A program made the position numbers and the translations under genes. A stretch of 62,754 nt of DNA, filler included, from Chrysochromulina tobinii (taxonomy: Eukaryota), in assembly GCA_001275005.1 (NCBI GenBank). It is 8 parts of 8 records of this genome, joined end to end, with 100 filler letters (N's around TTAATTAATTAA, not from the genome) between each part and the next. Parts side by side here need not be neighbours in the genome. Positions count along the whole stretch, not along the records: positions 35,074 to 44,704 come from JWZX01001236.1; 7 more parts are not named here. The stretch is one strand, 5' to 3'. The notes beneath the pieces were generated by a model, which was given only the letters and a program-made list of their open reading frames with translations, had not been told where the DNA came from and searched no databases. Below are positions 16,077 to 61,500 of this stretch, piece after piece; position 1 is the stretch's first letter, and each line of letters begins with the position of its first letter.

Positions 16077-16318
16077 TGCGAGAAGAGGACGGACGGCGAG
16101 TCGGGCTTTAGCGAGTCCGCGTCCGCGGCGTTGATTCCAAATTTACAACGCGCTCGGTTTCCTGTTTTCTTCGAAAAGGGGAGTTCACGCCCACCCCCGT
16201 GGGACTACGGTGTTGTGTGTGTCTCCCTTGATATCGTTGTGTGACATGACCATCTCACCTCGTACCGGTAATTATGACGAAATTGTAACACGAAAGGGTG
16301 CGTACGTCGCCGAGAAAA

Positions 16319-19300: not shown

Positions 19301-19609
19301 GCTCGAGCGCGACCCCACAAGCGTGGAACACGCGCGGGCGGTGCGTTCGGGAGCGGCGAAGTTGGCGCTGGCTTTGACTACGATGCCGCTGCTGCCAACG
19401 CGCCGTTCGTATACTCCATGAGCAACGCGCAGGGCGGCAGCAACGGAGCACCGCCTCGGGGGCCCACACACGGAGGGAAAGGGACGGGGGGGGGCGCTGG
19501 AGCAGGAGGTGGCAAGCGCCAACCGCCGCCGTCGAGTGGCAATCGGTCGATGAGCTTTGCTCCATCCGGCCCGATGCAAGGCAAGGGTGGTGGCGGACGA
19601 CGATATTGA
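16319..19609 (+). CDS. RRP6: Exosome 3'-5' exonuclease RRP6/EXOSC10 (PMC2NT, DEDDy exonuclease, HRDC, disordered tail)
   Basis: Motifs KPQQRW..DNSSRPFVPKLRSKPNA, FAIDLECHAFRSYRGFVCLMQISTR, HGADSDVIWLQRDFG, ADWRLRPL..M..YAREDTHYLLYIYD and the HRDC LYAWRD..AREEDESPDYVLP. Intronless; ATG at 16319. Confidence 0.95.
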   Translation: MTSTPTEVTDPEFTRALLANLVSGTRTSNSLPSTEDGYATAFSGYNASMAAMGSRLNSMMQGFMDQHQVPITGAIDDVSARFDSVVELSDRLLDRVDQDLDRQEVVQMAPSTLQLAAGTRVSSVALLLDSARRAAPAAGTAPAPAMVANKPQQRWRDEVDNSSRPFVPKLRSKPNAILPLELRLEQPDESGRDLSPLSALGTAASSARPQPAAWYANPYTPEINAFVPSEEQLSSGREQLYMPLHATPCTWVDTNAALQQLRARLVTVSEFAIDLECHAFRSYRGFVCLMQISTREEDFLIDTLELRSSLHVLNDSFTDPRIAKVMHGADSDVIWLQRDFGLYLVGLFDTGQAMRVLEFQSFALAHLLKHYCGVTANKSLQMADWRLRPLTDEMATYAREDTHYLLYIYDRMRADLAPSGRCLAVWQRSAELCRQAYKTPQFDPDGHTTLARRQNVQLNSSQMAVLQALYAWRDVFAREEDESPDYVLPKHQLFRLAIGMPQTPEQLHAVCHPLPPLLQYRATSLLTTIRNAMVETAPADKCSQPSPQVSASPRAFAGNPLSGSIAGSACPVLLSSSAGMATTHPMQPSLNAHAASFNALPSEMPSLAVCSSPMLTAGNAGPPAVSHSLSASAGGRPASGRSVRCPPAPTRSPPLPLEHVYTAAGWVGNGPEELTRALLPGGRDRNAASLSEANSGAFVDWSEGSSGDDDDVGEPLEEGEDARTARSVERHLTSSSLWVLSMFAPAAHGAGPAAASNADSGSLATGERGEEHAVPRSLNEIYKLSNQNKRRGAAVRRPSEEVPQDLEDSKADGEISSEGDEDLQPFEEEEEELDEDEADGSKRPRATEEASWIAEPSDTEDFMRRIGWLRPDAEMPTGSESSPADFVRANGSGSGSLRPVGSEGLELGFGSGGLQAGDPPPLPFQRQLPPHMPGRLGGGPSGVTEQAPVSIASSIGSVPQQPALAQLLAPRPHSQQPSSGSPSHSDAQEMSDKKARARPHKRGTRAGGAFGSGEVGAGFDYDAAAANAPFVYSMSNAQGGSNGAPPRGPTHGGKGTGGGAGAGGGKRQPPPSSGNRSMSFAPSGPMQGKGGGGRRY

Positions 19610-24174: not shown

Positions 24175-27100
24175 CCATCGCCTCCACCGCCATCATCGCC
24201 GTCACCGCCATCGCCTCCGCCGCCATCGCCGTCGCCGCCTCCGCCACTGCCACCACCGCCATCGCCACCGCCACCGTCGCCACCACCACCGTCGCCACCG
24301 CCGTCGCCACCGCCGCCTTCTCCCCCGCCACCCTCGCCACCGCCATCGCCGCCTCCGCCTTCTCCTCCACCGCCGTCGCCGCCTCCATCGCCACCACCAT
24401 CACCACCACCCTCGCCACCTCCCATTCCTTTCTTCCGTCGCTCTTCATTGCGTTGCGAAGATCTTGGCTGGACGTTTGTCCCAAATCTTGGGCCAAGCGG
24501 GGTATGTGGCTCCTCTAGCATGCCGAGGCTCATGGGCGTACCTGAATGTCTGCAACGACCTCCGGGAGGGCCCCAGCCAACAGCTAATGGGCCGGTCGAG
24601 CGTACCTGCCTTCAGTATGCCCCTCGCACGGGTTGCCTGCCACCCATGAGATGGCGCGAGGCTGAGCAGGCATGTCGCAATCATGGGGCTCGGCTCTGCC
24701 TGCGGGAGGAGCTGCCCGCAGCCAAAGGGACAGGCTGCGGCCATGATGCACAGTACGTTTGGGTGTGGGAGGCGTGCCGCCACGCGCCCGCGGGACTGCC
24801 CATCGGACTGCACAATAATTCGGACACGTTTGTGGTGGCGCAGGGCGGAAATCATCGCAATTACTACTGCGCTGAGGATTGGCCGTTACCCGCTCGCCAT
24901 TCTGTGCGATGCTGTGCAGATGCTGTTGCAGGCGACCCCCCTTCGCCACCGCCCGTGCCGCCACCACCACGGCCTCCACCAGAGCCGCCACCTCCATCAC
25001 CCCCTCCTTCCCCTCCACCCTATCCACCCACTCCATCCCCACCTCCACCTAGCCCTCCACCATCACCACCACCTTCGCCGCCGCCACCCTCGCCGCCACC
25101 GCCCTCCCCTCCCCCACCGTCACCTCCGCCCCCATCTCCTCCGCCTAGCCCGCCGCCACCATCTCCACCCCCCAGCGAGCCGCCACAGTATTGCTCTAAC
25201 GACTGCGTCACGCCCATGGGAACAAACGATCTATCGGTTGTCCTCGATGGAGTCTGCGACGATGGCGGACCGGGGTCGTTTTTTCGATTTATGCAAGATC
25301 GGATCCGATTGTGCCGACTGTGGCACCCGAGACTACTTCCCACCCTCTTCGCCACCCCAGCCTCCCCAGCGCCCCCCCCCACCGCCACCAGCTTCACCAT
25401 CGCCAAATCAGCTCGTTGGCACCGGAGACCAGCCTGACATCGCTGGCGACGGATTCAGTGAGGACCCAATTGATATTGCTGACCCCATCACCGACGGCAA
25501 TACTAAAACTCCTCACCGGTTACTCACGGAGCCTCCCCCGCTGCCCGATCTAAATCTCGGTCAATATTTTGCAGGCGCGTTGGATGCGATCCAGGAAGCG
25601 TCAGGCGACCGTCCGCCGTTCCGCTATCTCGACTGGGAGCTCGTGCCCGTGAGCTTCCTGGGTAAGGGAGTCTCATACACGTCCGACTACATGGCCAGCA
25701 AGCCCGCTGAGATCCCGTCGCTTCCGTGGTACGGCTATTCCTTCGACGGCGAGACGTACGGCGTGTGGATGCGAGGGCCGAGCGCACTGCTGAGCCACGC
25801 CGGCTTCATGCTTGTCTTTCATGAAGGGACTCAAGTTGGTTGTCCGCTTCTCATGTCGTATCTTCAGCCCAAGTCAAAGCTCTGGCGATTGGGCTCACCG
25901 CCGTTTAAAGAATGCTGCGCTGACGGGGAGCTGAACCGCACGTGTCTGCCAGCATGGCTTCAGGTTGCGCTTGCGCCGAATCAAACATCGCTCCATGCGC
26001 CCGGTGTCTTGCACGACCCCGAGGGACATTTACCATCACGAGACGGCAATCTCTCTCAGCATTTTGCAATCTACTATTCCACCGCGCCGAGCACTGCTGA
26101 AGCGGGCCTCGCGTGCATTGGCCGCATCTCCGGAAGGTGGGTTGCTGCAGACGGCCTTTGCGCGCCTACCATTGAGTGGGAAGAGGATGGAGAACCCGTC
26201 TTGTGCTCGAACAGCGCCTCGAGCATGTCAGTCGGACACGAGGAGATCGCCGACGTGGCAGCGGGGACGAAGTACAATTCGACCAATTTGTGGAGGATCT
26301 CTTCGAATGGCGAGGCGCTCGCGCATGCCGCCGAGCCATTCTTTGGTCTCGATGGGTCGTTATACATGGTCTATGGAGCGCGAGCGCCGGGCGACATTCG
26401 TATTGTGCAGCTCAACGAGAGCAGTGGTAGGCTGCCTACAGTTGCACAGCCAGGCTTTTTCTCGGCGGGCTCGGATCGGGGTAGACCGTCGATCTACCAC
26501 CACGTTGCCACAGGGCCCAACTTTCAGCTCGGCCCAGATCGTCCAGCTCCCTTCACCGAACGTGACGCGTACATCAGCGGCTCCATCCGCCTGCACGGAC
26601 CCTCATACGTGGACGCCTCGGGCAACACAAGTGCTGACGACCTTAACAGCAGCGTGCTTTCTTCGCTGATCCAAAATGCGTACGTGCTGCCCAGGCTCAA
26701 GAATGGCACCGCCGAGTACTATCTGTTCGTGGAGTGGTTTGACGACGGCACGCTCGACAATCACACGAACACATCCCTCGCCCGAGTTTACGTTGGGCGG
26801 TCTACGTCCCCCATCGGCCCTTTTTATGATCGTCTGGGATACGACATGAGCCAGAGAAGCCGCGTGGTCATTGGCGCGCATAGACGTATCAGCATTGTGT
26901 CTGCACGCTGGGGCGCCAATTGCGATGGCGCGGGCTATGATGTGAGAGCAGTTGCGAAGCAGCGTTGTGAAAACAAGGAAACGTGCGACTGGGCGGTCAG
27001 CTACAGAGACCTGGTGCCTTTGGACCCTTTGTCGTATTCCGACTATGACAACCCACCAAGTTCAGCGTCCTCTGAAGACCAATACACCGATGCGCCCATC

Positions 27101-30100
27101 AACGTCCCTGACCACCCTGGCTGCCGACGCGCTCTCAACGTCACCTATCGCTGCCACAAGGGTTCTACAGTGCTCTACGAATCCGAGTTGAGAGGAGAAG
27201 AGAAGACTGCATTTTTGCCGGCCAACGCTTCCGATGGAGACGTTGTTCAACTGCGATGCGTGACGCCCGAAGCCGTGCTGTTGCCAGGTGGATCTCTCTT
27301 TGCCGACTCGCAACGCTTGGGGGGCAATTTGCACTTCCTCAGCCTGTCGCACACCGGAGTCTTTGCCTACGCTCGCGACGGATCCGTGCGTTTTGCGTTC
27401 ACATTTCAGTACCAGACGAGTCGAAGCTCCATGCCCGAGTTCGGTGCGCGGCTCATCCGGTTCACCAAAGACGGTTGGCCGGTTCTCGACGAGGACACGA
27501 CGAACGACTGGGCAAAATGTGGCGTGCCTGAGGCGACGTATTCGCGCATTGCGCCAGCCAGCTACTTTGAGCGAGAGGCCCACTACGACCCTGCTCACCG
27601 CGACCAGGCTTACTATGGCAGTGTCAGCAGCACCGGAACGCATTGCACATATCATTCGCAGCGCGGCTCGCACTGCGTCGGCAACGCGCTCCGAGCCACA
27701 CATCCGCAAATCGGCTCGCCCGGTCCCGTGGGCGACCTGCTTCACGGCAGGATCAACGAGCAGGGCAGCCCTGGATGGTGGCGTGAGCAGGAGGATCACT
27801 GCAACCCAATGGTCGAGACGTATCTGGGCAGGACGCTGCAATGCACTCGATTTGCGGGCATCGGCGATCTGGACCCGACGGGGCACATCACGACGATGGA
27901 GCGCATCCGAGGCTGCCCAGAGCTCGCCTGCCAAAAGCACGAGGGCGAGTGCAAGAGGCTGGCGCAGCTCCGCGTGGCTGCTTGGGACACGCTCGACTTT
28001 TATGACGGTGGCGTACCAGTGGAGATCACTCGTCGGGGACGCGAGCCGGCAAGGATCCAAGTGGTTGCAAACTGCCATGCCGCTCCAAACATTTCTCGCA
28101 TCAATCCTTCCTTAGCGAATGTGGAGGGCGGCACTGCAATCACCGTCTTCGGCACGGGGTTTGGTCAGCCTGCTCGCTGTAGATTTGGTTGGCGAGAGAC
28201 GCCGGCGATCAACGTGACCTCGCATCAGATGGTTTGCGTCTCGCAACCGCTGAATTTGACGCACCCCGAGTCGGTCCCATGGACGCGCGCAAGGCTTCTA
28301 CGCTACCCATTCCCACTGGAGGTCTCGATGATGTCGACCCAAGTGCTCGAGCGCACGCCCATGAGCGAGGCCGTCCGCGAGGCGCGAGGCGAGAATTTCA
28401 CAAGCGCGGGTCGCTTCTTCGAGTTCTACAATCCTGGCAGCATCGTTATCTCCTTTGTGCAGCCCATGGGCGGGCCCTCGGCTGGATCGACGCACATCGA
28501 CCTCCACGGTGCCGGATTCCCTAAATTGCCAGACGACCCGAATGCCGTGAGCAACGCACAATGCCGATTTGAGCTTGATGGTCGCCAGGTGCTGATGCCA
28601 GCGACGCACCACAACACGGAGCGGATGAGTTGCTTCACCCCCGCGTTTGCGCTGCCGCTCTTGGCATCCGAAGTGGCCACGGTGCAACTCACCTTCGACG
28701 GCCAGCGCTTCGTTGAAGGCGAGGGACGTGCCAATTATACGTTCTACTCGCTGCAGAACCGCAGTAACGAAAGCTCGACCGTCGCACAGTTTCCAAGCGT
28801 GGCCATCAGCGCAATCGACCCCCTCGGGGGCCCCTCGCGCGGAGGCACTAGGCTCACGCTCTTTGGGCGCGGCTTTGCCGCCCTAGACAATCCCAATCGA
28901 TTTGTCCAGTCCATTTTCAACCATCAAGACACGAGGCTCCGCCCTCAACCGACGAGGCGCACCGTAGCCACATCAACCGGCACCCTCACGTACACCGAGT
29001 GGGACGACCCCGTCACAGACCCGCTTCACGATCCGTATCGTCACATAATCAGCCCCTCGGGCCTCTTTTGCTTATTCGCGGGCGTTGAGCCGATCGTGCC
29101 AGGGGCATACACTCTGGACGATGACCCGGTGCGGCGTGAATACGTCCCGGGCACCGCGACGGCTTCCGAGATCATGCACTGCGTGACGCCTCCTCATCCC
29201 GACTGGGAGTCGAACCCATGGGTGAACACTTCCGTGCCTCTTGAGATCACGCTGAATGGCAACCGCCATGAAGTCACTGACTCCGGTCTGATGTTCACGT
29301 ATTATCGTGATGAGGGCTTCGGGCGGCCGAGGCTTTCGGCAGTCCAGCCGTTTGGCGGTCCCTTCGAAGGAGGCACTGCTGTCAATATCTCGGGCGCGTT
29401 CCTTAACAAGCTGACGCTCACAAGCACGCCTGTCTGCCGGTTTGGCAACGGAGTGGAGCAAGACACGGTGCCTGCGACGGTGATCGCTCACGGCGACGAT
29501 CGGAGACGCGCGACTGTGCGCTGCGTCTCGCCACCGCTCAGCGATCGCGACGACAGAGTGGAGTTGGGGCAAAGGGATGTGAGCCTCAACGTAGCGCAAA
29601 ACGGGCAGGACTTTCTTTGGCGACCGCTGCGCTTCAATTTCTATCGCCGCGATAAGCTTGTTATCAGCACATTGGAGCCATCGGGTGGACCTGTACTCGG
29701 AGGCACCACGGTTGCACTGCGCGGCCGTCACATCGGCTTGTCACGAGGCGGGGTGCGATGCCAATTTGGGCATTTTTGGGTTCCGGCCACCGTCATCAAC
29801 GAGGATGATGTGCGCTGTCGCTCCCCCGCTCAAGCGCCCGCATTGACGGCAAACGAAACGTACGCTCCCGTCGCTGTGCGGGTCACAGTAAATGGGGATC
29901 CCGTCGCTCACTCCTACAGTCTGCGGCCATTCACTTACTTTGTGATGCCCGACGCGCTCGTCGTGTCTTCTATCCTTCCCGTGGCGGGGTTGGCGATGGG
30001 AGGTTCGGCCGTGACTGTCAAGGGGCGAGGCTTTCGCGATCTCGGCGGCGTGTACTGCACCTTTGGAGCCTCAGCGCCGGTGATTGCGGAGAGAACCCCG

Positions 30101-30778
30101 CCACCACCACCGCCGAGGCCGCTGGGTGGTGTTGACGGCAGTGTGCGCCTCGTCAACGGCGGAGGCCTTCTCAACCAGGGTCGCGTCGAGATTTACCACG
30201 ATGGCCAGTGGGGCACCGTGTGCGACGACTTTTGGGACATGAATGACGCGCGAGTAGTCTGTCGGCAACTCGGCTTCCCTGGGGCGCTCAACTTCACGCT
30301 GCACGGTGCCTTCGGGCATGGCTCGGGGCCGATCTGGCTTGACAACGTGCGGTGCGAACCATTCGAAGAGCGGCTCGACCGCTGCTCGTCGCTCGGTTGG
30401 GGAGTGCACAACTGTGACCATCATGAAGACGCTGGCGTTATCTGCGCGCCGATGCCGACCACCTCGACGCCCAGCCCGCCACCGACTGACCCGCCCAGCA
30501 CAGAGCTACCGTGGAGCCGCCTGGACGATTTTCAGCTCACGCGCAGCCCGCACGGTGCCCACTTGGACGACCTCGCTGCTTCGCCTCTCGAGCTGCTGCG
30601 CGGCTTCAACGAGAGCGAAGTCTTCAGCGAATTCGTTTGTCTTACGCCCTCGCTCGAGGAGGCGCTTGGTCGTCACGACCCCCGCGTTATCATCCGCACT
30701 GTCGAGCTCGTCATCACGCTAAATGGTGGTGACGCGTACAGCGCCGTGGGGCGCAACTTCACGTACTACATTGATTGA
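24175..30778 (+). CDS. Large multidomain extracellular protein: Pro-rich linkers, Cys modules, GH43-like propeller with inserted Gal-lectin, six IPT/TIG domains, SRCR; frameshift at the T6 run 25279-25284
   Basis: ORFs 24130-25437 and 24683-30778 join as [26 protein letters not shown]. The SRCR is canonical ([38 protein letters not shown], about 30143-30445). IPT motifs PxGGPxxGGTxxxxxG recur. The true start was not identified; a splice-acceptor-like site ends at 24174. Confidence 0.85.
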
Positions 30779-35073: not shown

Positions 35074-37694
35074 TCTTCGAGCCCGACGTGAAGAACGAAG
35101 AGGGACGCCAGGAGGTGATCCAGGCCCTGGGCATCATGGAGCTGCTCGGCGGCGGGCATGCCTCCGGCTGGTGCTTCGATGGCAGCAAGATCCTCTACTC
35201 TTCATCTGCGCTCGCGCTGCCAATGGGGAGCACCACGGCCACGTGGCAGGGTGGGGAAGAGAGGCTGACGGGCTTGGCCTTCGCGGGCACGAAGCGCCAG
35301 GTCACTGTGACGCTCAGCTTCGCGGCCACCCTGCAGGCAGGCGAGCGCTTCGCGAGCACGGACTTTGGACTTCGCGCAGACGACCGTAAGCACCTCGCTG
35401 TCCTCGACGTGTGCTTCAAGCATGCGTCGACGAGCGTGGGGCTCAAGGCCCTGGGCACGGCTCTCTTCGATGCTCGCAGCCAGCGCGCGTGGGCCTCTAT
35501 TCGGGCCATCGGGCAAAACAAGACTTTCGAGCTGTGGAAAGGCAAACGGCAGACGATTGTGATGACAGCCAAGGGCCCGATGATGCAGCTCGACGCGGCG
35601 GCGCGAGTGATGCTTTCGGGCCTCAAACTCGACGACTTCGTGTCCAAGCTAGTGAGGAAGCAACCTGAGCAGCTCCAGATGGAGGATTTCGCCAAGCTCG
35701 ATAGAATGCTGCGCGAGAAAAAGTTCAAGGTCAAGATCAGCTCCACCCACTGCCGGCGATCCTTCATTCTACGCGGCATCGACATCGAGCCATGCTCCCG
35801 CTCGATGTTCCCTTGCACCGACGCCGACGGCAAGGAGACGGAGATGAGCGTGGCCGCCTACTTCGCGGACAAGTACCCCGACCATCCGCTGAAGCGCCCC
35901 ACCCAGTGGCCCTGTGTGTGCGTGGGCCCCGCCAACGACCCGCACAAGAACCGCATCCCCCTCGAGCTCTGCTCTATCATCACAGGCCAGCCCGCGCCCG
36001 TCACGCCGGAGATCCAGGCGGAGATGATCACGGCGACGGCCGACGGGCCCGAGAGTCGTTTCAAATTCATCGAGGGGGTCCACCGCGACATGCTCCAGGA
36101 CGTCGCGGCCAACGCGACACCCATGGCATTCGAGATCGACTTCGGCAAGCAGCTGATCGAAGCCGAGGCCACCATCCTTCGCTCGCCCGTCCTCCAATAC
36201 AAAGCGTCGGGACAGAGGAACTCGCCGCTCCAAGATGTGCAGGTTATGTCAGGCAAGGGTGAGTGGAACCTACGGGCAGGCTCCGGCGATCTGGGCTTCT
36301 ACCAGCCGGGGCGCGTCGATGGCTTCGCCGTTGTCAAGTTCGAGCGTGCCGACGATAGACTCGTGAACACCTTCATCGATAAGCTCATGGGATTCGCGCG
36401 CTCGCGTGGCATGGACATTGGCCGGCAGGAAGGCACAATCGTCGACCTCTCTTCCCACCGCCATGGCGAGGCGATCGAGAAGGCGTTGGATACGGCTATC
36501 CGCCGGCTAGGTACTCGCGTCGGTCTGGTCATCTGCTTCATCGGCGACAAACAAGCGATGAATGCTAAGGAGCTCTACCCGGCGATCAAACGCTGGTCCC
36601 ATGTCATCGGGTGCATCCCCACGCAGTGCGTGCAGGTCGGCAAGGCGACTGGCCCAAAGCTGGGGACGAGCCCGCAGTACCACGCAGGCGTGCTGCTCAA
36701 GATCAACCTCAAGCTTGGCGGTGCTAACTGCATCTGCAAGGCGCCTGATGGCCTCGGAATTTTGCGTGCAGCGCCTACAATGGTCATGGGGTTCGACATC
36801 AACCACCCTCAGCCGGGCTCGAACAAGCCGTCGTATTCGGCGCTCGTGGCGGCGCTGGACATCGAGTGCACCAAGTTCCACACGGTCATCGGCTCGCAAA
36901 GGTCGCGTACCGAGGTCGGCGAGAGATCGGACGAGATCGTGGGGTTCGTCGATAAAGTGCGCGAGTGCCTTCGCGCGTTCCACCGCTTGAACGGTACGCA
37001 TCCGCGGCGTATCCTCTTCTATCGGGACGGCGTGGCGCACAACCAATTCGAGGCGGTGAAGCGCGTCGAGGTTGGGCGCATCTTCGAAGCATGCCGCGAC
37101 GAGGGAAAAGACTACGTGCCCGAACTCACCTTCATCGTCGTGCAGCAACGCACGGCCGCTCGCTTCGCACAGCAGAATAAGTCGCAGCTGCTCCCAGGGA
37201 CCATCGTCACCTCGGACGTCGTCGGCAATGACGGGTGTGTGGCTGTCCCCTTACCCCTTCGACCTCGGTGGCGATGACTCCTCGGTGACGATGACTCCCC
37301 ACTGCCTGCCGCTCACCCGATGTCTGCGTGCCCACGTGCCTGTGTGCACAGCATGGACTGGTACATGGTCTCCCAAAAGGGCCTGAAGGGTACCTCGCGC
37401 CCCACGCACTACCACATCCTCCAAGCCGATTTCGGCGCGCCCGCCGAGCTTCAGCAGCTCACCTTCGACCTATGCCACCTCTATGCGCGCGCGACCAAAG
37501 TCGTGAGCCGGCCGGCGCCCGTGTACTACGCGCATCGCGCCGCCTTCCTTGCACAGTATTACAAGGACGGCTACCGCGAGGAGAACATGTTTGAGGTAGG
37601 CTCGACGACGTCGCACGGCTCCAGGGGCTCCGGTGGGTCTCTGCAGAGCATCGTGCTCGGCATTAACATCTGCAACACAGTCTACTTTGCGTGA
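35074..37694 (+). CDS. AGO: Argonaute (PAZ-MID-PIWI), 5'-partial, with one intron at 37235-37351
   Basis: PAZ MSVAAYFADKY...IPLELC; MID YPAIKR..CIPTQCV..KINLKLGG; PIWI GFDINHP, YRDGV, GTSRPTHY, CHLYARATKVVSRPAPVYYAH. A GT-AG intron joins the two ORFs as ND-G-MDWY. Confidence 0.96.
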
Positions 37695-37739
37695 CCGCCT
37701 CTGGTGAGAGAGTGACTGGAGCTATTGCCAGTTCATGTG

Positions 37740-38016
37740 GTCACAAGGGCTCGAGATGAGCCCAGGTCGGGGGCAGTGCTGCGGGCATGACTGGGGGCGA
37801 GTCGGCTCCGTCACAAGGGCTCGAGATGAGCCCAGGTCGGGGGCAGTGCTGCGGGCATGACTGGGGGCGAGTCGGCTCCGTCACAAGGGCTCGAGATGTA
37901 GGTCGGGGGCAGTGCTGCGGGCATGACTGGGGGAGTTGGCTCCGTCACAAGGGCTCGAGATGTAGGTCGGGGGCAGTGCTGTCAGCAGCGCTGCGGGCAT
38001 GACTTGGGGCGAGTCG
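37740..38016. repeat. 70-bp minisatellite, about 4 copies, just downstream of the Argonaute stop codon
   Basis: Unit gtcacaagggctcgagatgagcccaggtcgggggcagtgctgcgggcatgactgggggcgagtcggctcc. Copies start at 37740, 37810, 37880 and about 37944; later copies carry indels. Confidence 0.92.
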
Positions 38017-38678
38017 TCGTATGTGCTACAGTACGTCGTATGTGCGCGAAGAATGGTGGTGGAGTATAACCAAAATCGTTCTGTTATTGGTTTTGGCGTA
38101 AGCGCGCCAAGGAATAAGCGGTGATTGGTTTCGTTGGTCGTTAGAGCGTGTATGGTTCTGAGGTACCGTTTCCGCACCATGTTCCGGCTTCCGCACAGCC
38201 TCCCGCACCTGGTCCTTGCTAGAGGCGAGGCCGACGCCTCGTTCCTCGTTCGCTTCCGTTCAACATGTACGGGTCCGTAGGAGTCGAGTCCACACTCAGT
38301 ATTACGCAATTGAAATGGCGAAGGATGTCCAGCATGATGGCGGAGCTGAAGTGGTAGCGCTTAACACGTGGGGGGCATCAGTCAGAGCCCACGATACATC
38401 AGTGAGGCTGTCCACGCGGTTGCCTCGGGAGAGCTCACACAACAGTCCACGCCATGGCCCATGCCGCACGCGCGGTCACTGTGACGGCCTCGTTGCGGCG
38501 CGATTTTTTATTCGTTTAAGCGTCGCGTAGCGCTTATCGATCGCCTGGTTGTGGCGTTCCTGCTCGCGTCGTGGCGGTCGATACCGCTTGTACCCGGCGC
38601 GATTCTATTCATAAAAATTCGTAGCGGTGCGCGATCATACTATTGATAATACGCGGGCTTCGGCTCCGTTGTATGCGG

Positions 38679-41600
38679 TTACATTTCACGATAACACACG
38701 CGCTGGCTCGTCGAAGCATAGTACACCCCGCCGGTGAAAGTCGCGTAGCATGGAGCAGCATGTACTACCGATGGCAGCGACGGCGGTGCGCCGTGATGGG
38801 CACTTGCATGCGAGGGCGGCGGGGCGTTGGGTGGCCACGCGCCCGAAAGCGGCGGCGGTGCGCTCGAGTAGGGTGGTGGCGGGTAGGCACTCGGCGGGTA
38901 GGGGCTAGTGGCGGGAAGGGCGGGTAGTGGCGGGTAGGCACTCGGCGGCGGCAGATACATGGGCTGCCCAGGATCGCGCATACACGTGCCGCTCAGTCGA
39001 GGATCGTCGACGCATCGCCATGTGCCGTGCTGCACGCAGGGAATCGCCATGGCATGCGCAAGCGACCATGTGGCGCCGTGATGGGCACTTGCATGCGGCC
39101 AAGTGGCGGATGAGCTGCTGCTGCTGCTGCCAGCTGCATCGGAGGCAGAGCCGGTCGGACCAGCTGCATCGGAGGCAGAGCCGGTCGGAACCGATGATGG
39201 ATGAGAGAGGCAATCAGCATGCAATGATGGATGAGAGAGAACAGTCGGCGGCCCCTCGGCTTCCCCTTGAGGCGCATGCAAGTGCCCATCACGGCGCGTC
39301 GCATGCAATGATGGATGAGAGAGAACAGTCGGCGGCCCCTCTGCTTCCCCTTGAGGCGCATGCAAGTGCCCATCACGGCGCGTCTCGGCTTCCCCTTGAG
39401 GCGCATGCAAGTGCCCATCACGGCGCGTCTCTGCTTCCCATGCTTCCATCCGCCGAGCATCGTCCGCCAGGCGGCGTGCGGGCTCGGCGAGGTCTCGAAG
39501 CGCAAGCGCATCGCCGACGAACGCGGCGTCACAGCCGGCAGCGGGCGGCCGCCTCGGCAGCACCGCCTGGCTGCAACGGTCGTAGGCGAGCTCGGCGTCG
39601 TCGCCGCCCGCGACGGCGGCGGCGACACGCCCCCCGGTCGCAGCATGCAAGTGCCCATCGCGGCGCGTCTCTGCTTCAAACGGGGGTGCAGCATGCAAGT
39701 GCCCATCGCGGCGCGTCTCTGCTTCAGACGGGGGCGCAGCATGCAAGTGCCCATCGCGGCGCGTCTCTGCTTCAGACGGGGGCGCAGCATGCAAGTGCCC
39801 ATCGCGGCGCGCCTCCGCTCCAAACGCAGTTGGCTTGCCATCTCGATCCGACGGGGGCGCAGCATGCAAGTGCCCATCGCGGCGCGTCTCTGCTTCAGAC
39901 GGGGCAGCATGCAAGTGCCCATCGCGGCGCGTCTCTGCTTCAGACGGGGCAGCATGCAAGTGCCCATCGCGGCGCGTCTCTGCTTCAGACGGGGGCGCAG
40001 CATGCAAGTGCCCATCGCGGCGCGCCTCCGTTCCAAACGCAGTTGGCTTGCCATCTCGATCCCACGCGATTGGGACTGTGAGCCGATCTCGTCGGAGATT
40101 GGCGAGATGGCGCCGGAGATCGGGGGGCTCATGCCGTGGCGTCCGGGCGCCGTCGTGGGCGTGGTGGCGCTCGTGCAGCAGCGTGCAGCGCCAGCCGTTT
40201 GGGCACCAACCCTCCTGAAACGCACGGCAAAGGCGCTTGGGTGTGGCCATATGAGGAAGGCACGGGCGCTTGGGGTTGGCCATATTAGGAAGGCTCGGGC
40301 GTTTGAGTGCGGCCGCGCTGCCGCCGCTGCTGCCGCTGCTGCTGCCGCTGCTGCCGCTGCTGCCGCTGCTGCTGCTGCTGCTGCTGCCGCCGCTGCTGCT
40401 TGCACCCGGTGTCTCGGCCCGGTGGGAGTGAGTCGGCTTCAACCTGTGGGGAAACGGCGCTGTGGTGAGCACTTGCATGCAAGGCAGGTCATCAGTGGCA
40501 ATCAGGAGTGAGTCGGCTTCAACCTGCACGTCGCCGAAGGGACAGCTTCGGTCACCTCCGCCGCCTCTGCCGCCGCGCGCTCCGCCCCAATGTGCATCGC
40601 GTAGCATAAGGCCGCCGCCTCCTCCTCGGGCGTCGCGAAGGTGCCGAGGTGACGCTGCTTGCCTTTATCATTGATCTTAGCTTGGTACTTACCACCATGA
40701 TTCGACACGCCCTTGAAACCCGTCTCACAGCTCGACGACGGCAACAGCTCGGGGCCCTCGGCCGCCGCATGCATCGACGGACCTGTGGGGAGCATGGCGC
40801 CGTTGTGAGCACTTGCATGCAGGGCCTTCAGCCGCCGCCTGCATCGACGGACCTGACTCCGACAACATCTCCCACAGCACCTGGGCCGCTGCAACCTGCT
40901 GCAGCCTGCTGTTGACTGCTGCCTGGGCCGCTGCAGCCTGCTTTCCTAAAATGGCCGCTGCAGCCCTCTGCGCTGCGCCTTGCTGCTGCGGCCCGTACGG
41001 AGTCTGCAGCCTGCTGCTGCCTGCTGCAGCCTGCCTTCTTAATATGGCCGCTGCAGCCTGCTGCGCTGCGCCTTGCTGCTGCGGCTCGTACGGAGTCTGC
41101 TGCTGAGTCTGCAGGGATGCTGGGAGCGAGGGGGTAGTCGACGTCACCTGTAGGGAGAGAGAGGAGGGGGCGCCGTTGTGGGCGCTTGCATGCTTGGGGC
41201 CAAGGAGGTAGTCGTCGCCACTCCGGTGAGAGGAGGGGGCGCCGTTGTGGGCGCTTGCATGCTTGGGGCCAAGGATGTAGTTGTCGCCACTCCGATGAGC
41301 TCGGCACGCTCGACCCATATTAGGCACTCCGAGGGCCCTGTTCCCTTGCATGCAAGTGCTCAATCCGGTGAGCTCGGCACGCACCTCGAGCGAGGTTCGC
41401 ATCTCGCCCGCCAATGGCACGAGGTGCGCGGGCAGCTCGAGACGCACCTGATGAGGGAGGCCATTGCATGCCATCAGATGAGGGAGGCCATTGCATGCCA
41501 TCGGATGAGGGAGGTGCGCGGGCAGCTCGAGGCGCACCTCGAACGGCCCCGATGACAACCGGCCGACGCCAAAGTGCGCGCCGCTCGGCACGCCGCGCAC

Positions 41601-44490
41601 CTCGGCGGCCCTCTGGCCGTTGATGTGCCATGCGAGGACGCCGCCGGCGAGCGTCATGCGGATCCGATCACCCGCATCGAAAGAGGGCAGGCCGTTCTGA
41701 ACCAAGGAGTCCTTGTGCCGTATGGCACCGTCCGCTCTGTAGCTCCAGCTGTCGGCGTCTCCACCTGATGAGGGAGGCGATCGGATGTCATCAGAGGTCA
41801 TCAGAGGTCATCAGCTGTCGGCGTCTCCACCTGGAGATCGCGACAGGGCGTCAGATGCCATCAGAGGTCATCAGAAGTCGTCAGAGGTCATCAGAGGCCA
41901 TCAGAGGCCATCAGAGGCCATCAGAGGTCATCAGAGGCCATCAGAGGTCATCAGAGGTCATCAGGGGCGTCAACACCTAGGGAGCGGGACAGGGCGTCCT
42001 TGCGCGGCAGCGCTGCGCCGATGAAGCAGCGACTCGGATCGGTGCACTGCTGCACGACGAGCTCGACCATCGGCGAGATCGCACCGAGCAGCGCCCGCCC
42101 GGTGGCCTCGAGCCTCACGCTCCGCTTGTTGTGGCTGAGTTTGGCGCTTGCGACCTTGAGCTCCGTCGCAAAACTCAGCGCGCCTTGCTGCTGCACCGCT
42201 TGCTGCAGCGCCGTAGCCTGCTGCGCCGCCGCTTGCTGCGCTGCCACTTGCTGCCCTACCACTTGCTGCGCCGCCGCCTGCTGCGCCGCCTCCTGCTGCG
42301 CCTGCGCCTCTGACTGCGCGATCGCGAGGACCAGTGCGGTGGCCTCCTCCTCCGCCTCGTCGACGTCCTCGCTCACGACCCCGGGGGCATAGGTGTTCCC
42401 AGCCACGCGGAAGCGTAACGGCTTCTCCCAACGGCCAAACATCGAGCCGTCGAGTACGTTCCCAGTCGCGTGCCCGCTCACCTGATGAGGGAGGCAATCA
42501 GACGTCATCCGGTTGATGAGGGAGGCAATCATCGGCCGCTCACTCACCATGTGATCGAGTTTGAGTGTGGCCATCAGTGGTCATCGGTGGTCATCAGTGG
42601 TCATCAGTGGTGATCAGTGGTCATCAGTGGTCATCAGTGGTCATCAGTGGCCATCGGCCACTCACCGTGTCATCGAGCTTGAGCGCAGTCTCGTTGCCCT
42701 CAAACTGGCACAAATCGACGACTACGCTGCCGCCGCCTCGGGTGACGATCACCTCCTTGTTATGCGCAAACGTACATTCCACTGCCTCGAAGGCGCATGC
42801 CCGGTCGACGCGCACGGCGCAGATCGAATGCTGCACGAGGGAGAGAGATCGAATGCCATCAAGGGTCATCAGTGGTCCTCAGAGGTCATCAGAGGTGCTG
42901 CATGAGGGAGAGAGATCGAATGCCATCAAGGGTCATCAGTGGTCCTCAGAGGTCATCAGTGGTGCTGCACGAGGGAGAGAGATCGAATGCCATCAAGGGT
43001 CATCAGTGGTCAACTGTGGTCAACAGTAGTCATCAGCGGTCATGAGTGGTCCTCAGTGGTCCTCAGTGGCACTCACCTGCATGCTGCACCCGTGCAGAGA
43101 GAGTGAGGTGCTTTCCTTCATGTCGATGGCCGTACTCGCGAGCCCTCCCTTTCGTTTGGCCGCCACTTGGCAGCGCACCAGTTTCCACCGACCCCTCTGC
43201 ACACGGATTGCGGGCTCCATGTAGTGCCCCAAACTCAACCCCTCGATGACGCCCACAATCTGAAACAATCTCGACTCCTCGATTGCGCGCGCGACGAGCC
43301 CCGCCTCGCCCCTTGCCATACAATGCGACCCCGCCTCGCCGTGACGGCCTCCATTCGCCAGCTCCTCCTCTGCCTGCGTGCGTGCACCGCCTCCGACTGC
43401 AAGCACCGACTTGCCCAATTTGGAACCAGTATGCCGCCCCCCTGTGTGCCGCCCCCCCCTCGCCGGTGGCTCGTCCCATTTATAAAAGTTGGCCTTGTGC
43501 GAAGATCCCGAGCCGCGGCTCGAGCCGCCATCGAGGCGCAGCTGGCCTACAAGCTGCACGCCCTCCTCGGCATAAAGGTGGATGGGCTGTGCAATCAGGA
43601 GGTCGCCGTACAAGGTCGAGCCGGCCCGCAACCGCACGCGCTCCAAGTGAGGCAAGTCCGCAGGCACACGACTCAGGACCGCCGCGGCACTCCGCTCGTC
43701 CACCTGCAGGCAACGAGGGAGGCAATCAGCATGCAACGAGGGAGGCAATTAGCATGCAACGAGGGAGGCAATCCGCATGCAATGAGGAAGGACCATCCGC
43801 GGCAATCAGCATGCAATGAGGGAGGGCCATCCGCGGCCATCCGCGGCAATCTCGCTCGTTCACCTCGAGCCACAATCTCAAACTCGAGGATGAAGGGGGC
43901 AATCAGAGGCACTCAGATGCAATCTCGCTCATTCACCTCGAGCCACGATCTCGCCCAGATCTCGAGCGCGGGCGAGTCCGTGGGCTGTAGCAGGCGGTGG
44001 AACGTCCGGTTCACCGCCATCAGGCGCCGCAACGTCAGCCGGCATTCGAGGTGGCTCAGGATCTCGTACCTGATGAGGGAGGCAATCAGATGTCATTCGA
44101 GGCCATCAGAAAGGTCATCGAGGTGGCTCAGGATCTCGTACCTGATGAAAAGGGGGCAGTCAGAGGCGGCACTCAGATGCAATCATTCTCGCACGTGACT
44201 TCGACGTTCTCAAACTCGAGGACCAAAGGGGCAATCAGAGGTACTCAGAGGCAAGCTCGCACGTGACGTCGACGTTCTCAAAGTCGATGTGTGCCGTCGT
44301 GTCGACCCGATCGTCGTCGACGTTCTCAAACTCGAGGTGTCGCTCCAAATTAGGCAACTCGTTGTGATGATCCAAGTGAGGCAACTCGCAAACTCCAAAC
44401 TTGTGCCTCGCGAGCGCGCCCGACACGGCGTCGAGGCCGTGGAGGCCAGACTTGCGAGTGTAGTACCCGTGCGACACCTTGGTGGACTCT

Positions 44491-44528
<38 letters not shown>

Positions 44529-44704
44529 TATCTCCTCGCGCTCGTTGGCTGCCTTCTTCGCAACCTGTGGCGGCTTCTTGGCGGCGGCGATGAGGATGCC
44601 CTCGACCTCGTCCCCGCTCTCCTCGTCGTCGTCCTCATCTCCGTCTCCGTCCCCGTCCCCGTCCCCGCCCTCCTCCCCATCCTGCTCCCCCTCCCCCTCC
44701 CCCT
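38679..44704 (-). CDS. 10-exon multidomain protein, 5'-partial: acidic tract, F-box-like, right-handed beta-helix, SPRY-like, Gln/Ala-rich, AP2, CCCH zinc finger, repetitive tail
   Basis: Hand-assembled exons: 44704-44263, 44069-43937, 43703-43077, 42830-42666, 42481-41977, 41764-41538, 41447-41385, 41147-40853, 40782-40524, 40443-38679. All nine introns are GT-AG and phases are consistent. AP2: TGFKGVSNHGGKYQAKI..KQRHLGTFATPEEEAAALCY. CCCH: CRAFQEGWCPNGWRCTLLH. The last exon may hide further introns. Confidence 0.78.
38783..40026. repeat. Dispersed/tandem copies of a ~25-nt motif GCATGCAAGTGCCCATC(A/G)CGGCGC in both orientations
   Basis: About 11 copies on + between 39275 and 40026 (42-45-bp spacing in the tandem part), and 2 copies on - near 38788-38811 and 39073-39096. 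Confidence 0.9.
41787..43070. repeat. Intronic 10-bp satellites (tcatcagagg / tcatcagtgg) and a ~67-bp triplicated unit
   Basis: Arrays lie at about 41787-41963, 42571-42650 and 42831-43070, all inside predicted introns. Confidence 0.9.
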
Positions 44705-44965: not shown

Positions 44966-46306
44966 ATGTGCAGGCTCTCGACTTTCCTGACGGAGGACGT
45001 CCTGGAGAACGCCCTCGCGTTCGCCGACGTGCCGACGCTGCGCGCGCTCAAGGGCGTGAGCCTCGCGTGGCGTGCGCGGGCACGGCGCGTCCTTTGCGCG
45101 CGGCTGTGCGCTCGAGTCGGCCTGCCGCTCGCGAGCAACCTCGGCAACGTGACGACGCTCGACCTCTCGGGCAGCCGCGCCGCAGGCCGCCTCTTCGCCG
45201 ACGCGGCCGACGCGGCGTGCGGGCTGCCCAACCTGGCAAGGGTGACGGGGCTGGGCGGCTTTGAGGTGGACGTGGCCGCGCTAAGGAGCGTGGCGTCATC
45301 TGGTGAAGACTCGTACCCGATGGCGGGGATGCGCGGGTGCATCCGTGGCGTAGGCGAGGCGCCGATGGAGGTGCCGCCGATGGAGGTGCTGCTCGCCGCG
45401 TGCGCGCTGCGCCACGGCAAGGCGCGCGTTCCGGCGAACGCATTCCGCGGTGACAGGTCCATTACGTCGATCACGCTCCCAACCGGCCTCACCAGCATCG
45501 GGGAGTGCGCCTTCCATGGCTGCTCCTCGTTGACAACGATCGAGCTTCCCGCCGGCCTCACGAGCATCGGTGAGTTCGCCTTCTCTCGCTGCTCCTCGAT
45601 GACATCGATCGAGCTGCCCATCAGCCTCGCGAACCTTGGCCGGTACGCCTTCCGCGACTGCTCCTCGTTGACGTTGATGGAGCTGCCTGCCAGCCTCACG
45701 AGCATCGGTGAGCATGCCTTCGAGGACTGCTCCTCGTTGACAACGATCGCGCTGCCCGCCGGCCTCACGAGCATCGGTGAGTTCGCCTTCCGTGCCTGCT
45801 CCTCGATGACATCGATCAAGCTGCCCCTTGGCCTCACGAGCATCGATAAGAGCACCTTCCGTGGCTGCTCCTCGTTGACAACGATCGAGCTGCCCGCCGG
45901 CCTCACGAGCATCGGTGAGTTCGCCTTCTATCGCTGCTCCTCGATGACATCGATCGAGCTGCCCATCGGCCTCGCGAGCCTTGGCGGGTACGCCTTCCGC
46001 AACTGCTCCTCGTTGACGTTGATGGAGCTGCCTGCCAGCCTCACGAGCATCGGTGAGTATGCCTTCGAGGACTGCTCCTCGATGACGTCGATCGCGTTTC
46101 CCGCTGGCCTCACAAGCCTCGGTGTGGGCGCCTTCGATGGCTGTGACTCGTTGACGTCCATCACGCTGCCCGACAGCCTTACGTGGGAAGGCCTTAAAGG
46201 ATTATATGAGAAGGCCTTACGTGGATGCCCATGCACGTCGGAATGGCGACAAGTTGGTAGCTCTACCGATAGTGATAGTGATGGCGAGTTGTTTAGCGAG
46301 TTGTGA
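44966..46306 (+). CDS. F-box-like plus BspA/TpLRR (LRR_5) protein
   Basis: N-terminal FLTEDVLENALAFADVPTLRALKGVSLAWRARA (F-box-like), followed by about 10 LPxGLTSIGExAFxxCSSL/M repeats. Confidence 0.88.
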   Translation: MCRLSTFLTEDVLENALAFADVPTLRALKGVSLAWRARARRVLCARLCARVGLPLASNLGNVTTLDLSGSRAAGRLFADAADAACGLPNLARVTGLGGFEVDVAALRSVASSGEDSYPMAGMRGCIRGVGEAPMEVPPMEVLLAACALRHGKARVPANAFRGDRSITSITLPTGLTSIGECAFHGCSSLTTIELPAGLTSIGEFAFSRCSSMTSIELPISLANLGRYAFRDCSSLTLMELPASLTSIGEHAFEDCSSLTTIALPAGLTSIGEFAFRACSSMTSIKLPLGLTSIDKSTFRGCSSLTTIELPAGLTSIGEFAFYRCSSMTSIELPIGLASLGGYAFRNCSSLTLMELPASLTSIGEYAFEDCSSMTSIAFPAGLTSLGVGAFDGCDSLTSITLPDSLTWEGLKGLYEKALRGCPCTSEWRQVGSSTDSDSDGELFSEL

Positions 46307-58317: not shown

Positions 58318-58515
58318 ATCCACGGCGGCGGCACGCGAGGTTGGTCGTAGAGACCAAGAAAGGCTCCATGCTGCCGAGGAGGGCGAATGCGCGCTGTGAA
58401 TGAGGAATTAAAGTTGGGCGTGCTGTCTCGGAACGCCTAAGTGCCGTTTGAGATCGCTTCTTTCGGGAGCTGCGGGCTCGGGTCGTGTTAACGTTCACAC
58501 CCCTCGGCAAAAGTT
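58318..58515. promoter_or_regulatory. Probable bidirectional promoter between the divergent FHA and TOP2 genes
   Basis: About 200-bp head-to-head spacing. Similar divergent pairs lie at 16077-16318 and 8781-8878. Positional inference only. Confidence 0.4.
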
Positions 58516-61500
58516 ATGTCGGCAATCCGACGGACTACCGTGGCCACCTCCGCGACCCTTAGCCGTTCCTTGCCACCACTCATCGCACGACGTTTTGTCT
58601 CGCGCACGGAGTCAAAGATGACTGTGAGCGAACTGAAGGAGGTGCTGGGCAAGCTCGGTTTGCCGACGACAGGCAAGAAGGCCGAGCTGGTGGCACGGCA
58701 TGCGGAGGCGTTGGCGCTGGCGGCGACAGGGCCCGAACCCGCAAAGCGCATCCACACGGCCGCACCCGCAGTGATCGCCTCCTCATCCTCGGCGGACGCG
58801 TCCAAGTTCGAACGGCTCACGCCGGTCGAGCACGTCCTACGCCGTCCGGGCATGTACATCGGCTCGACTTCGGTGCAGATCGAGCCGCTGTGGGTTCACG
58901 ACGCGGCCGAGGATCGGATCGTGTGGCGCGATGCACAGTACATCCCAGGGCTCTATAAGATTTTTGACGAGATCCTCGTCAACGCGCTCGACAACGTGCA
59001 GCGCGACCCGGCGGGCACCAACCGCATTGACGTGGCCATCGAGCCGCGCTCAGGGCGAACGAGCGTGTGGAATAACGGGCGCGGCATCCCGGTGCGCCGG
59101 CACGAGATCGAGGGCGTGTGGCTCCCCGAGATGCTCCTAGGCTCTCTCTTCACCGGTTCCAACTTTGACGACGAAGCCAAGCGTACCGTTGGGGGCAGGC
59201 ATGGTTTCGGTGCGAAGCTGACGAACCTCTTCTCAACGGCCTTCGAGGTGCAGACGGCGGACGCGGCGGCGGGCGTGCTGTACACCCAGCGCTGGGCGGC
59301 CAATATGAGCGAGCGCACCGAGCCAACCATCGAGCCGCTGCCGGCCACGATGCGAGGAGCGGACTTCACCAAGATCGTCTTCACACCCGACCTGACGAAA
59401 TTTGGTGTGCACGCACTACCGGAGGACATGCTTGCTCTCTTCCGACGGCGCGTGTACGATGCGGCTGCGACCGCCGCACCCGCGTGCGTCTCGCTCGACG
59501 GCCGAACGCTCCAAGTGAGCGGGCTGCAGCAGCTCGCACAGCTGTATACGAGCGGCCCGCACGCCTTCGCACGGGTGTCCGAGCGATGGCACGTGGGGGC
59601 GTGCCTCTCGCCTACCGGTGCTTTCCAAGCGCTCAGCTTCGTCAATGGCGTCGCCACGCCGCGTGCGGGCACGCACGTGACGCACGTATGCACGCCACTG
59701 CTGCAGGCGCTCGCTCCGGCGCTCAGCCGAGCGCTCAAGCTGCCCGCGGGTGAGGAGCTCACGACGGCGCGCCTCAAGCCGCATCTGATGCTCTTCGTCG
59801 ATTGCAAAGTGGATAACCCAGAGTTCGACTCGCAGTCGAAGGAAGCGCTCACGAGCCACCCTAGCAGCTTCGGGGGGCTGTGCGCCCTACCCGACGCCTT
59901 CATCAAGCGCGTGGCGGCCCTCGAGGGGCTTCGGGCCGCCGTTGCCGACGCGTTTGAACGACGCGCCACCAAAGAGCTCGCGCGCCGTACTGGGCCAGCG
60001 ACCTCGCTGCTCGAGGTGCCAAAGCTCGAGGACGCGGAGCTGGCGGGCGGACCAAGCGCATCCGAGTGCACTCTCATTGTAACCGAGGGCGATTCCGCCA
60101 AGGCGTTGGCGGTGGCGGGGCTTGAGGTCGTCGGGCGGGAGCGTTACGGCGTCTTCCCCCTACGCGGCAAGCCACTCAACGTGCGTGAGATCTCGGCCAG
60201 AAAGGTGGGCGACAACGAGGAGCTCACCGGCCTGATGCGCGCCCTCGGCCTCACGCCAGGCGCGAGCTACGAACATCAGGTGGAGGCACTCAAGGCACTA
60301 TCCTCCTCGATCTCCTCGATCTCCTCGATCTCGCCGGCCGCCGAGGGTGGCGCGAACGCCGAGGGTGGCGCGAGCGCCGAGGGTGGCGCCAGCGCCTCGC
60401 CCATGCCTTCAGGCAAAGCCAGGGCTCGTGGCACGGGCCTGCGGTACGGGCGCCTCATGCTGATGGCGGATCAGGATACCGATGGCTCGCACATCAAGGG
60501 CCTCGTCATTTCGATGCTTCATCACTTTTGGCCCGAGTTGCTGCGTGCCGACTTTGTGCAAGAGTTCCAGACGCCGCTGCTCAAGGCGCGGCGTATCTCG
60601 GACGGCCAGGTACTCGCGTTCTTCTCGTTGCCCGAGTACGAAGCCTGGCACACGCAGCTCAGCGCGCCCGAGCAACGCCACTGGCGTGCCAAGTACTACA
60701 AGGGGCTGGGCACCTCGACCGCGCAGGAGGCGCGTGAGTACTTCGGGGCCTTGGGCTCGCATCGGCTTCAGCTCGAGTGGGCGAGCGCGGCAGATGACGA
60801 CCTGATCGACATGGCCTTCTCGAAGAAGCGAGCGGCGGATCGGCGCGAGTGGATGCTGCACGCTGCACGTCGCATGCATGCTGCAGCCAACGCGGCGGCA
60901 ACACCTGCGCAACTCGTGGACAGCAACGAGCCGCCGCCGCCGCCGCCGCCGCCGCAGCCGCCGCCGCAGCAGGGAGTTGAGCCGCCGTCGCCGCCGAAAG
61001 CGCAGCAAGGGCGCCGTGCGATCGGGGAGCGACGCACATACGCGGCATTCGTCAACGAGGAGCTCGTCCAGTTTTCTCTCGCGGACGTGCGCCGCTCGCT
61101 CCCATCCGCCATTGATGGCCTCAAGCCTTCCCAGCGCAAGGTGCTCTACGCGTGCTTTGCCAAGCGTCTGCTGCCCTCCGCCGCGGAGATGAAGGTGGCG
61201 CAGCTCGCGGGCTTCTGTGCCGAGGTGACCCATTATCACCACGGCGAGGCTTCGATGCATGCGACCATCACGAACATGGCGCAGGGCTTTGTGGGCTCGA
61301 ACAACGTGCCGCTACTAGAAGCGTGTGGCCAGTTTGGCACGCGCGCCGCCGGTGGGAGTGACGCGGCCTCGGCTCGGTACATCTTCACACGCCTCACGCC
61401 GCTTGCTCCGCTCCTCTTCCCAGCGGCCGACGCACCGATCCTCAAGTACTGCGTCGAGGACGGACATTCTGTGGAGCCAATCCACTACGTGCCTGTGCTG

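Follow-up and report, generated by a model that had tools for sequence, protein, structure and literature searches.

Introns composed of a flanking-exon copy and one half of another intron in Chrysochromulina tobinii and its relatives

How new spliceosomal introns come about other than in bursts of transposons has long been an open question, and few cases underlie most of the routes proposed. In repair-associated gain of the Daphnia type, direct repeats border the new intron and enclose an inserted segment. Introners, by comparison, come as families: a marine Chrysochromulina sp. has one with a 4-bp target-site duplication (TSD) (PMC9860276), and Emiliania huxleyi has fam24, an unclassified family of five copies described as having '10bp terminal direct repeats', which co-opts a 5' splice site and carries the 3' one, and for which the automated TSD call appears to be 2 bp (PMC12130899). 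The same survey, of 8,716 genomes, reports no introner family for C. tobinii (PMC12130899). Here we describe nine introns of a single gene in a window of C. tobinii DNA (62,754 nt; eight contigs joined with N spacers), all on the piece at positions 35074-44704, together with related introns from metagenome loci. These introns are chimeras in which a copy of 13 to 55 bases of flanking exon is joined to one half of another intron, and the pattern is real, genome-wide and recent. It is undescribed for C. tobinii in the full-text literature searched, from which most subscription papers were absent and which included the introner work bioRxiv 2022.06.06.494994.

Nine introns of one gene

The host gene (38679..44704, minus strand) encodes weak F-box-like, AP2-like and CCCH regions; its 5' end lies off the contig, and its predicted extent assumes that the last exon runs to the stop at 38679 with no further intron. 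At all nine coordinates given by an earlier note on this window, the introns run from GT to AG on the minus strand, and translation of the stretch with the introns removed gives one stop-free frame of 1086 codons. Apart from the exon copies, the introns consist of filler, in which we distinguish two acceptor types (A and B), 10-nt repeats, which resemble a branch-point motif, and an element of roughly 55 nt that has its own GT and whose core is the type B cassette. Units that lie behind older filler are called stacked.

44070..44262, minus strand: intron 1, 193 nt; previous exon's end copied at 44195-44219; stacked unit with a perfect 24-nt copy of the next exon at 44118-44141; type A end
43704..43936, minus strand: intron 2, 233 nt; decayed 5' copy of the next exon (9/12); internal junction-spanning copy at 43841-43879; splicing deduced from the frame
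42831..43076, minus strand: intron 3, 246 nt; donor from filler; internal 10-nt copies of the next exon; spliced in RNA runs X1-X3
42482..42665, minus strand: intron 4, 184 nt; filler of 10-nt repeats with a type A end; copy of the previous exon's end at 42550-42565; spliced in X1-X3
41765..41976, minus strand: intron 5, 212 nt; copy of the previous exon's end at 41836-41852, followed by a stacked 66-nt unit with a perfect 19-nt copy of the next exon at 41812-41830; splicing deduced from the frame
41448..41537, minus strand: intron 6, 90 nt; 27-nt copy of the next exon at 41511-41537; type A filler in 27-nt units, two or three among records; splicing deduced from the frame
41148..41384, minus strand: intron 7, 237 nt; decayed internal copy of the next exon at 41195-41221; type B end; splicing deduced from the frame
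40783..40852, minus strand: intron 8, 70 nt; 31-nt copy of the next exon at 40822-40852, joined to a type B cassette; spliced in X1-X3 but not in run X15
40444..40523, minus strand: intron 9, 80 nt; perfect 19-nt copy of the next exon at 40505-40523; filler a copy, truncated on its 5' side, of the element that has its own GT donor elsewhere; splicing deduced from the frame

The copies described earlier at 40444-40523 (19 nt perfect, 22 with CAG), 40783-40852 (31 nt, 3 mismatches) and 41448-41537 (27 nt, 1 mismatch) were all recovered, as were the internal ones in 41148-41384 and 42831-43076 and the shared filler ends, with GCCTCCCTCATCAG ending four introns and the GCATGCAAG..ACAG motif ending three. 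The four weaker 5' matches, scored against 183 other GT exon starts, fared differently: those at 41765 (p = 0.011) and 43704 (p = 0.016) stood, that at 42482 was borderline (p = 0.06), and that at 44070 was at the level of chance (p = 0.24), so that neither of these two stands out from chance. By local alignment, a copy of the next exon was significant in eight of the nine introns (p at most 0.008), the exception being 42482-42665. Five of the nine also hold a copy of the previous exon's end (p at most 0.034), a feature that had been missed, as had the perfect 24- and 19-nt internal copies of introns 1 and 5. The nine window introns have no terminal inverted repeats, the best local score between their ends being 3 to 7.

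Contigs from RNA runs X1-X3, which may be one campaign, join across 40783-40852, 42482-42665 and 42831-43076, confirming three of the nine junctions; the other six are not among the joints listed (15 of 251), so that splicing there is deduced from the continuity of the frame. One X1 contig retains intron 44070-44262, and one X2 contig extends 40 nt into intron 41148-41384. Assembly stutter is unlikely, since run X15, whose kind is not on record but which behaves as DNA, holds intron 40783-40852, and since the introns at 41448, 41148 and 40783 are present in all seven cluster records of the host gene, none of which is an intron-less allele for these three. In two records, intron 42831-43076 has a type B acceptor that replaces the end seen in the window. 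The depth of X15 is about 26,000 over the 10-nt filler compared to roughly 5 to 17 on unique sequence, indicating that the filler is abundant elsewhere.

Splicing had been thought necessary to keep the AP2 and CCCH domains in frame. It does link them in one frame, but each region lies within a single exon, and splicing therefore joins the domains without building them. The CCCH region matches Pfam with E = 9e-5, below the curated cut-off, while the AP2-like region has no Pfam match and finds WRI1 as its best PDB match (E = 0.001). Used as a protein query, the largest internal exon gave no homologue.

Related introns and intron-less records at other loci

Searching with one acceptor motif returned 136 stretches from 4 of the 64 parts of a metagenome collection (about 2200 estimated overall). 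They were stored as 129 loci, of which 20 (later 21) were dropped as redundant, leaving 109 loci of C. tobinii and relatives, a sample drawn around a single motif, which does not represent the genome without bias. The protein of one locus found with the motif of the window clusters with Ctob_010741 of C. tobinii and is identical to it over 274 residues; this and the shared motifs agree with an origin of the window in C. tobinii or a very close relative. The type A motif matched nothing in viral contigs; five matches in prokaryotic contigs were taken as chance and dropped, and a phage-like contig ending in a type B intron end (L135:4495-4554) was set aside as a likely assembly chimera.

An anchored copy of the next exon was found upstream of 57 of 128 terminal filler acceptors, compared to 0.16% of 2515 swaps and 1 of 121 internal-GT controls, so that junction similarity is far above chance in other loci. 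With relaxed motifs and the window included, 111 of 268 acceptors carry such a copy. The copies range continuously from 13 to 55 nt (median 25, with a score threshold that hides copies under about 12 nt), 49 of the 111 are perfect, and their mean divergence is 3.9%. Clean units (61 of 111) start with GT or GC in 57 cases, the shortest being 65 nt and the median 82 nt, and the other 50 units are stacked, with older filler in front of them that has the same end in 30 cases. Copy length and filler length trade off (rho -0.52). In the 38 clean units scored (3 skipped), all 30 GT/GC units lie on the coding strand and removal of the unit preserves the frame in 26 of these 30; of 188 pairs of filler neighbours no more than 500 nt apart, 184 are on the same strand. 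Stacking is also seen where the exon behind the older acceptor begins with something other than GT (L050), and mismatches within copies show no clear enrichment at donor positions 2 to 6. For the intron at L019:6670-6744, record P0218 has a longer intact exon copy than the locus itself, so that visible copy lengths can understate the original duplication.

One end of these introns is a copy of the host exon, and similarity between introns does not reach both ends. A conventional non-autonomous DNA transposon, that is, an introner making an unusually wide staggered cut, would account for the stereotyped type B core and GT-bearing element, and the sharing of splice sites between element and duplication is described introner logic (PMC9860276). 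Such an origin is nevertheless only remotely likely, given the lack of terminal inverted repeats in the nine window introns, a repeat length that is not fixed at the 3-9 bp described (n = 111), the one ragged end and the chimeric fillers.

A mirror form, in which the intron has its own donor and a copy of the previous exon's end supplies the AG, was found at 19 of 133 donor candidates, many of which are not true donors, compared to 0.1% in controls. Its 5' end is fixed and its 3' end is ragged. Target-primed reverse transcription typically leaves repeats of variable length, a fixed 3' end with a tail and a shortened 5' end. If a non-long-terminal-repeat (non-LTR) retrotransposon had acted in this way on excised-intron RNA or on a short element resembling a short interspersed element, with long and variable target-site duplications, the acceptor form, with its variable repeats, its 3' end fixed at AG and its shortened 5' end, would be explained except for the tail, since the listings show no poly(A) or tandem tail at the 3' end. 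The mirror form, however, would not fit, and neither would the same-gene bias or the near lack of opposite-strand copies. Although non-LTR-derived introners exist, at about 5% of classified cases (PMC12130899), we regard this route as improbable.

The 20-30-nt duplications, the shared splice-signal filler, the missing terminal inverted repeats and the range of decay thus hold, and the earlier interpretation of a distinct, recent intron-making process is supported. The underlying sequence observation is confirmed in part, and the interpretation needs three corrections: duplication of its own junction is not all that builds an intron, since one splice site derives from filler copied from other introns; mirror and stacked forms exist; and none of the nine window introns was matched by an allele without it.

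Filler is shared between sites. Near-identical filler 3' ends occur in 11 of 211 same-gene pairs, which are not independent, compared to 1.1% between loci (p = 0.0016; 9 of 39 loci). In L024, two introns 590 nt apart have the same rare filler, in versions whose lengths differ by about 9 nt, and in each intron the filler follows a separate perfect exon copy, of 22 or 25 nt; L092 and L078 similarly have rare filler common to neighbouring introns. At the 65 of 111 joins between copy and filler that could be scored, the overlap averages 1.97 nt, compared to 1.05 ± 0.14 in 300 simulated sets. In the intron at L006 5017, both filler ends are ragged and both splice sites lie inside the repeat. In L012 and L057, a fragment of the B core that has no splice sites lies in frame between repeats of 19 and 35 nt, which points to a step that is blind to splicing. 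By eye, 4 of 6 'no-splice' calls and 2 of 3 'antisense' calls were mis-registered ordinary introns, and a codon-model count (145 sense, 42 antisense, 59 non-coding-like, 39 ambiguous, 123 unscored) was not used because it misclassifies obvious sense introns. The anatomy, its two geometries and the sharing of filler are all directly observed.

Presence and absence were read from protein records called on public contigs, which are not independent. Among 80 sites tested, five introns had homologous repeats or paralogs, and all nine of their sister sites were uninterrupted, as was the site in two L053 paralogs. At three of six sites (L076, L019 and L026), the intron is absent and one repeat copy is kept in lineages 94-98% identical in protein; precise absence of this kind, which the earlier note had proposed to look for, was thus seen in other genes and for none of the nine window introns. 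In the ferrochelatase gene (L076), a 79-nt intron has a perfect 30-nt copy; among the records listed (15 of 70, main cluster), 11 read into the intron and 4 run through the site; the latter continue into the intron that follows, where their filler differs, and carry four linked exon substitutions. Nine outgroup open reading frames that break elsewhere, one on an 89-kb contig, run at least 35 residues through this site, which polarises the difference as a gain. The TRM1 intron (L019) is present in 8 records and missing from 6 that are 97-98% identical, on contigs up to 17 kb; in a transporter-like gene (L026), 1 record has it and 11, at 94-98% and on contigs up to 30 kb, do not. The long contigs and the read-through suggest that the intron-less records derive from DNA, and precise loss between repeats, instead of gain, may have occurred in sister lineages. 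At the other three sites, all informative records among those listed have the intron (L053, 15; L016, 15; L078, 9). That of L053 has a perfect 19-nt copy, yet it is common to all 15 listed records, one of them 94% identical, so that perfect repeats are not always young. Seven overlapping locus pairs (95-99.7% alike over aligned columns) showed differences in filler length and no intron presence/absence, and 8 of 20 exact protein look-ups had no match in the protein collection. In L076:8367-10557, the ferrochelatase is fused to an N-terminal Rieske domain, which most of the listed haptophyte relatives do not match.

These data bear on two further explanations. If old introns were mostly remodelled, by duplication across an existing splice site or by aborted loss from spliced cDNA, no new positions would arise. 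The 50 stacked units, the polymorphism of stacked units (L076 second intron, L078) and of acceptor swaps among records, and the three sites common to all listed records agree with this, whereas the 61 units without older filler before them, the uninterrupted outgroup, sister and paralog sites and the identical rare filler at different sites do not. Remodelling accounts for the stacked half of the units and not for the clean polymorphic ones, and as the main source it is already weakened and very doubtful. An assembly or annotation artefact might be suspected from the short-read contigs, the six window junctions unseen in RNA and the intron-less alleles known only as protein records. It is barely credible, as splicing was seen in three RNA runs, the same introns recur in many records, absence tracks exon substitutions (11 versus 4 records in L076, 8 versus 6 in L019), and the intron-less ferrochelatase records read into the next intron.

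Filler introns are strongly clustered by gene, and within the window filler is almost confined to the host gene. In the 3' part of that gene (38790-40066), variant type B cores occur in both orientations without the usual acceptor, as tandem repeats with 45-48-nt and 213-nt periods. The neighbouring Argonaute gene (PAZ, Piwi; 35074-37693, plus strand) has one ordinary 117-nt intron (about 37235-37351), spliced in X1-X3, with no filler and no duplication. Long intron-free frames of 1100-2040 codons (16289-19609, 24650-30778 and 58492-62733) share the stretch with the intron-packed gene. Tandem arrays of 69-nt period lie at 3684-5454 and 45464-46183, presumably BspA-type leucine-rich-repeat genes, and similar arrays occur in L049 and L066-L068.

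A proposed route of intron birth

We propose, at about even chance, that these introns originate by two microhomology-guided template switches followed by selection for splicing; the switching would likely happen during DNA repair or replication. DNA synthesis in an exon would switch by short homology onto a nearby intron, and the polymerase would copy the donor or acceptor half of that intron before switching back behind its point of departure. With an acceptor half, the duplicated exon piece would provide the donor through a GT or GC at its start; with a donor half, it would provide the acceptor through an AG at its end. Survival would be limited to products that either are spliced cleanly, with a length of at least about 65 nt and the frame preserved, or remain in frame. 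Where the event takes place at a splice site that is already there, a new unit would be stacked on the old intron. Units would be multiplied or lost through recombination between the repeats, and each new intron would offer a further template, so that the family would spread without a transposase. The pathway class is that of template switching and polymerase-theta templated insertion. Of single processes, a two-switch one is the simplest to yield the two geometries as well as stacking, donors on the same strand and in the same gene, ragged joins, and in-frame inserts that are not spliced. We infer the switching step, and the template may be DNA or the gene's own transcript. Overall, we lean slightly towards a self-amplifying, transposase-free intron factory, in which introns lend their halves, mostly within the same gene, while the exon duplication supplies the other splice site and primes precise loss.

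Several observations weigh against this proposal. No switch was observed. On average, filler is no more alike within genes than between loci (p = 0.22 for type A, 0.07 for type B), and for type B the same-gene excess of near-identical tails does not reach significance. The joins show a modest excess of microhomology, with 21 of 65 joins lacking overlap and a mean of 1.67 nt without the two largest values (16 and 7 nt, likely one paralog pair), and in 11 of the 61 clean units no base is shared to the left of the splice junction. The unspliced in-frame cases are two only, and intergenic or antisense copies, whose direct count is too noisy, are fewer than a splice-blind DNA process should leave.

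The main rival is a route through RNA, in which an excised intron would be half or fully reverse-spliced into a transcript, a break end would copy across the junction, and end joining would follow. It would explain without selection why, in most units, one end of the insert coincides precisely with a splice site and the insert is in sense orientation, and it agrees with same-gene donors and with stacking at existing junctions. Reverse splicing at previously spliced positions has been discussed, although it was shown only under non-physiological conditions (PMC3443670), and transcript-templated break repair has been shown in human cells (PMC12065846). However, the ragged filler ends of L006 5017, with both splice sites in the repeat, and the unspliced inserts of L012 and L057 do not fit, and selection alone could explain the splice-site precision. 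We consider the RNA route unlikely.

More than 100 footprints lie in about 0.7 Mb, about half of them with perfect repeats, and present-day lineages of an alga that is in culture and has been sequenced show signs of presence/absence, so that donors, homology at the junctions and rates are directly measurable. If the two-switch proposal is true, intron birth would be observable in living populations. In the case of a self-amplifying intron factory, intron number would be a live balance of gain and loss, explaining the pile-up in some genes and the absence from others, and standard introner searches would be blind to such intron formation. The zero reported for C. tobinii likely reflects a pipeline that needs similarity at both ends and drops low-complexity families (PMC9860276), and this route may go unnoticed in other lineages for the same reason.

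Comparison with known routes of intron gain

In the tandem duplication of AG/GT proposed by Rogers (PMC3443670), as here, a duplicated exon supplies a splice site and the coding sequence is unchanged. Here, however, usually only one splice site comes from the duplicate and most of the intron is foreign filler: the median copy is 25 nt, compared to a median clean unit of 82 nt, and AG precedes the donor in only 27 of 61 clean units, L006 5017 being one of a few cases that do fit. The introner-like elements (ILEs) with TSDs of Symbiodinium and Polarella (bioRxiv 10.1101/2020.10.14.339549) and the family of the marine Chrysochromulina sp. (PMC9860276) likewise carry one site and take the other from the duplication, and they too form many related introns of recent gain. 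In contrast to these, our introns have no fixed repeat length, inverted repeats or end-to-end identity, and their donors lie in the same gene; presence/absence among close relatives, which is also expected of introners, was found at three of six sites. Fam24 of E. huxleyi, likened here by its table description and not by its sequences, is from a haptophyte as well and has the same splice-site logic and direct repeats. Transposition by reverse splicing, as for fungal ILEs, yields whole copies without target duplication, unlike the half introns and long duplications seen here. Replitrons (PMC10288648) and stwintrons (PMC8469720), also considered, are no match.

The defining features of introners, pure tandem duplication and whole-intron transposition are therefore not those of the present introns. 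Repair-associated gain comes closest, with direct repeats around an insert at a newly gained position, as the outgroups of the ferrochelatase site indicate. Gain of that type starts from a staggered break filled by end joining, and the overlap at the joins here is only modestly higher than in the simulated sets. It differs in that the repeats here are 13-55 nt, the insert is a splice-signal-bearing half-intron from a genome-wide family, and two mirror geometries and repeated stacking occur. The system thus works like repair-associated gain with direct repeats, to which the self-propagation of intron halves is added.

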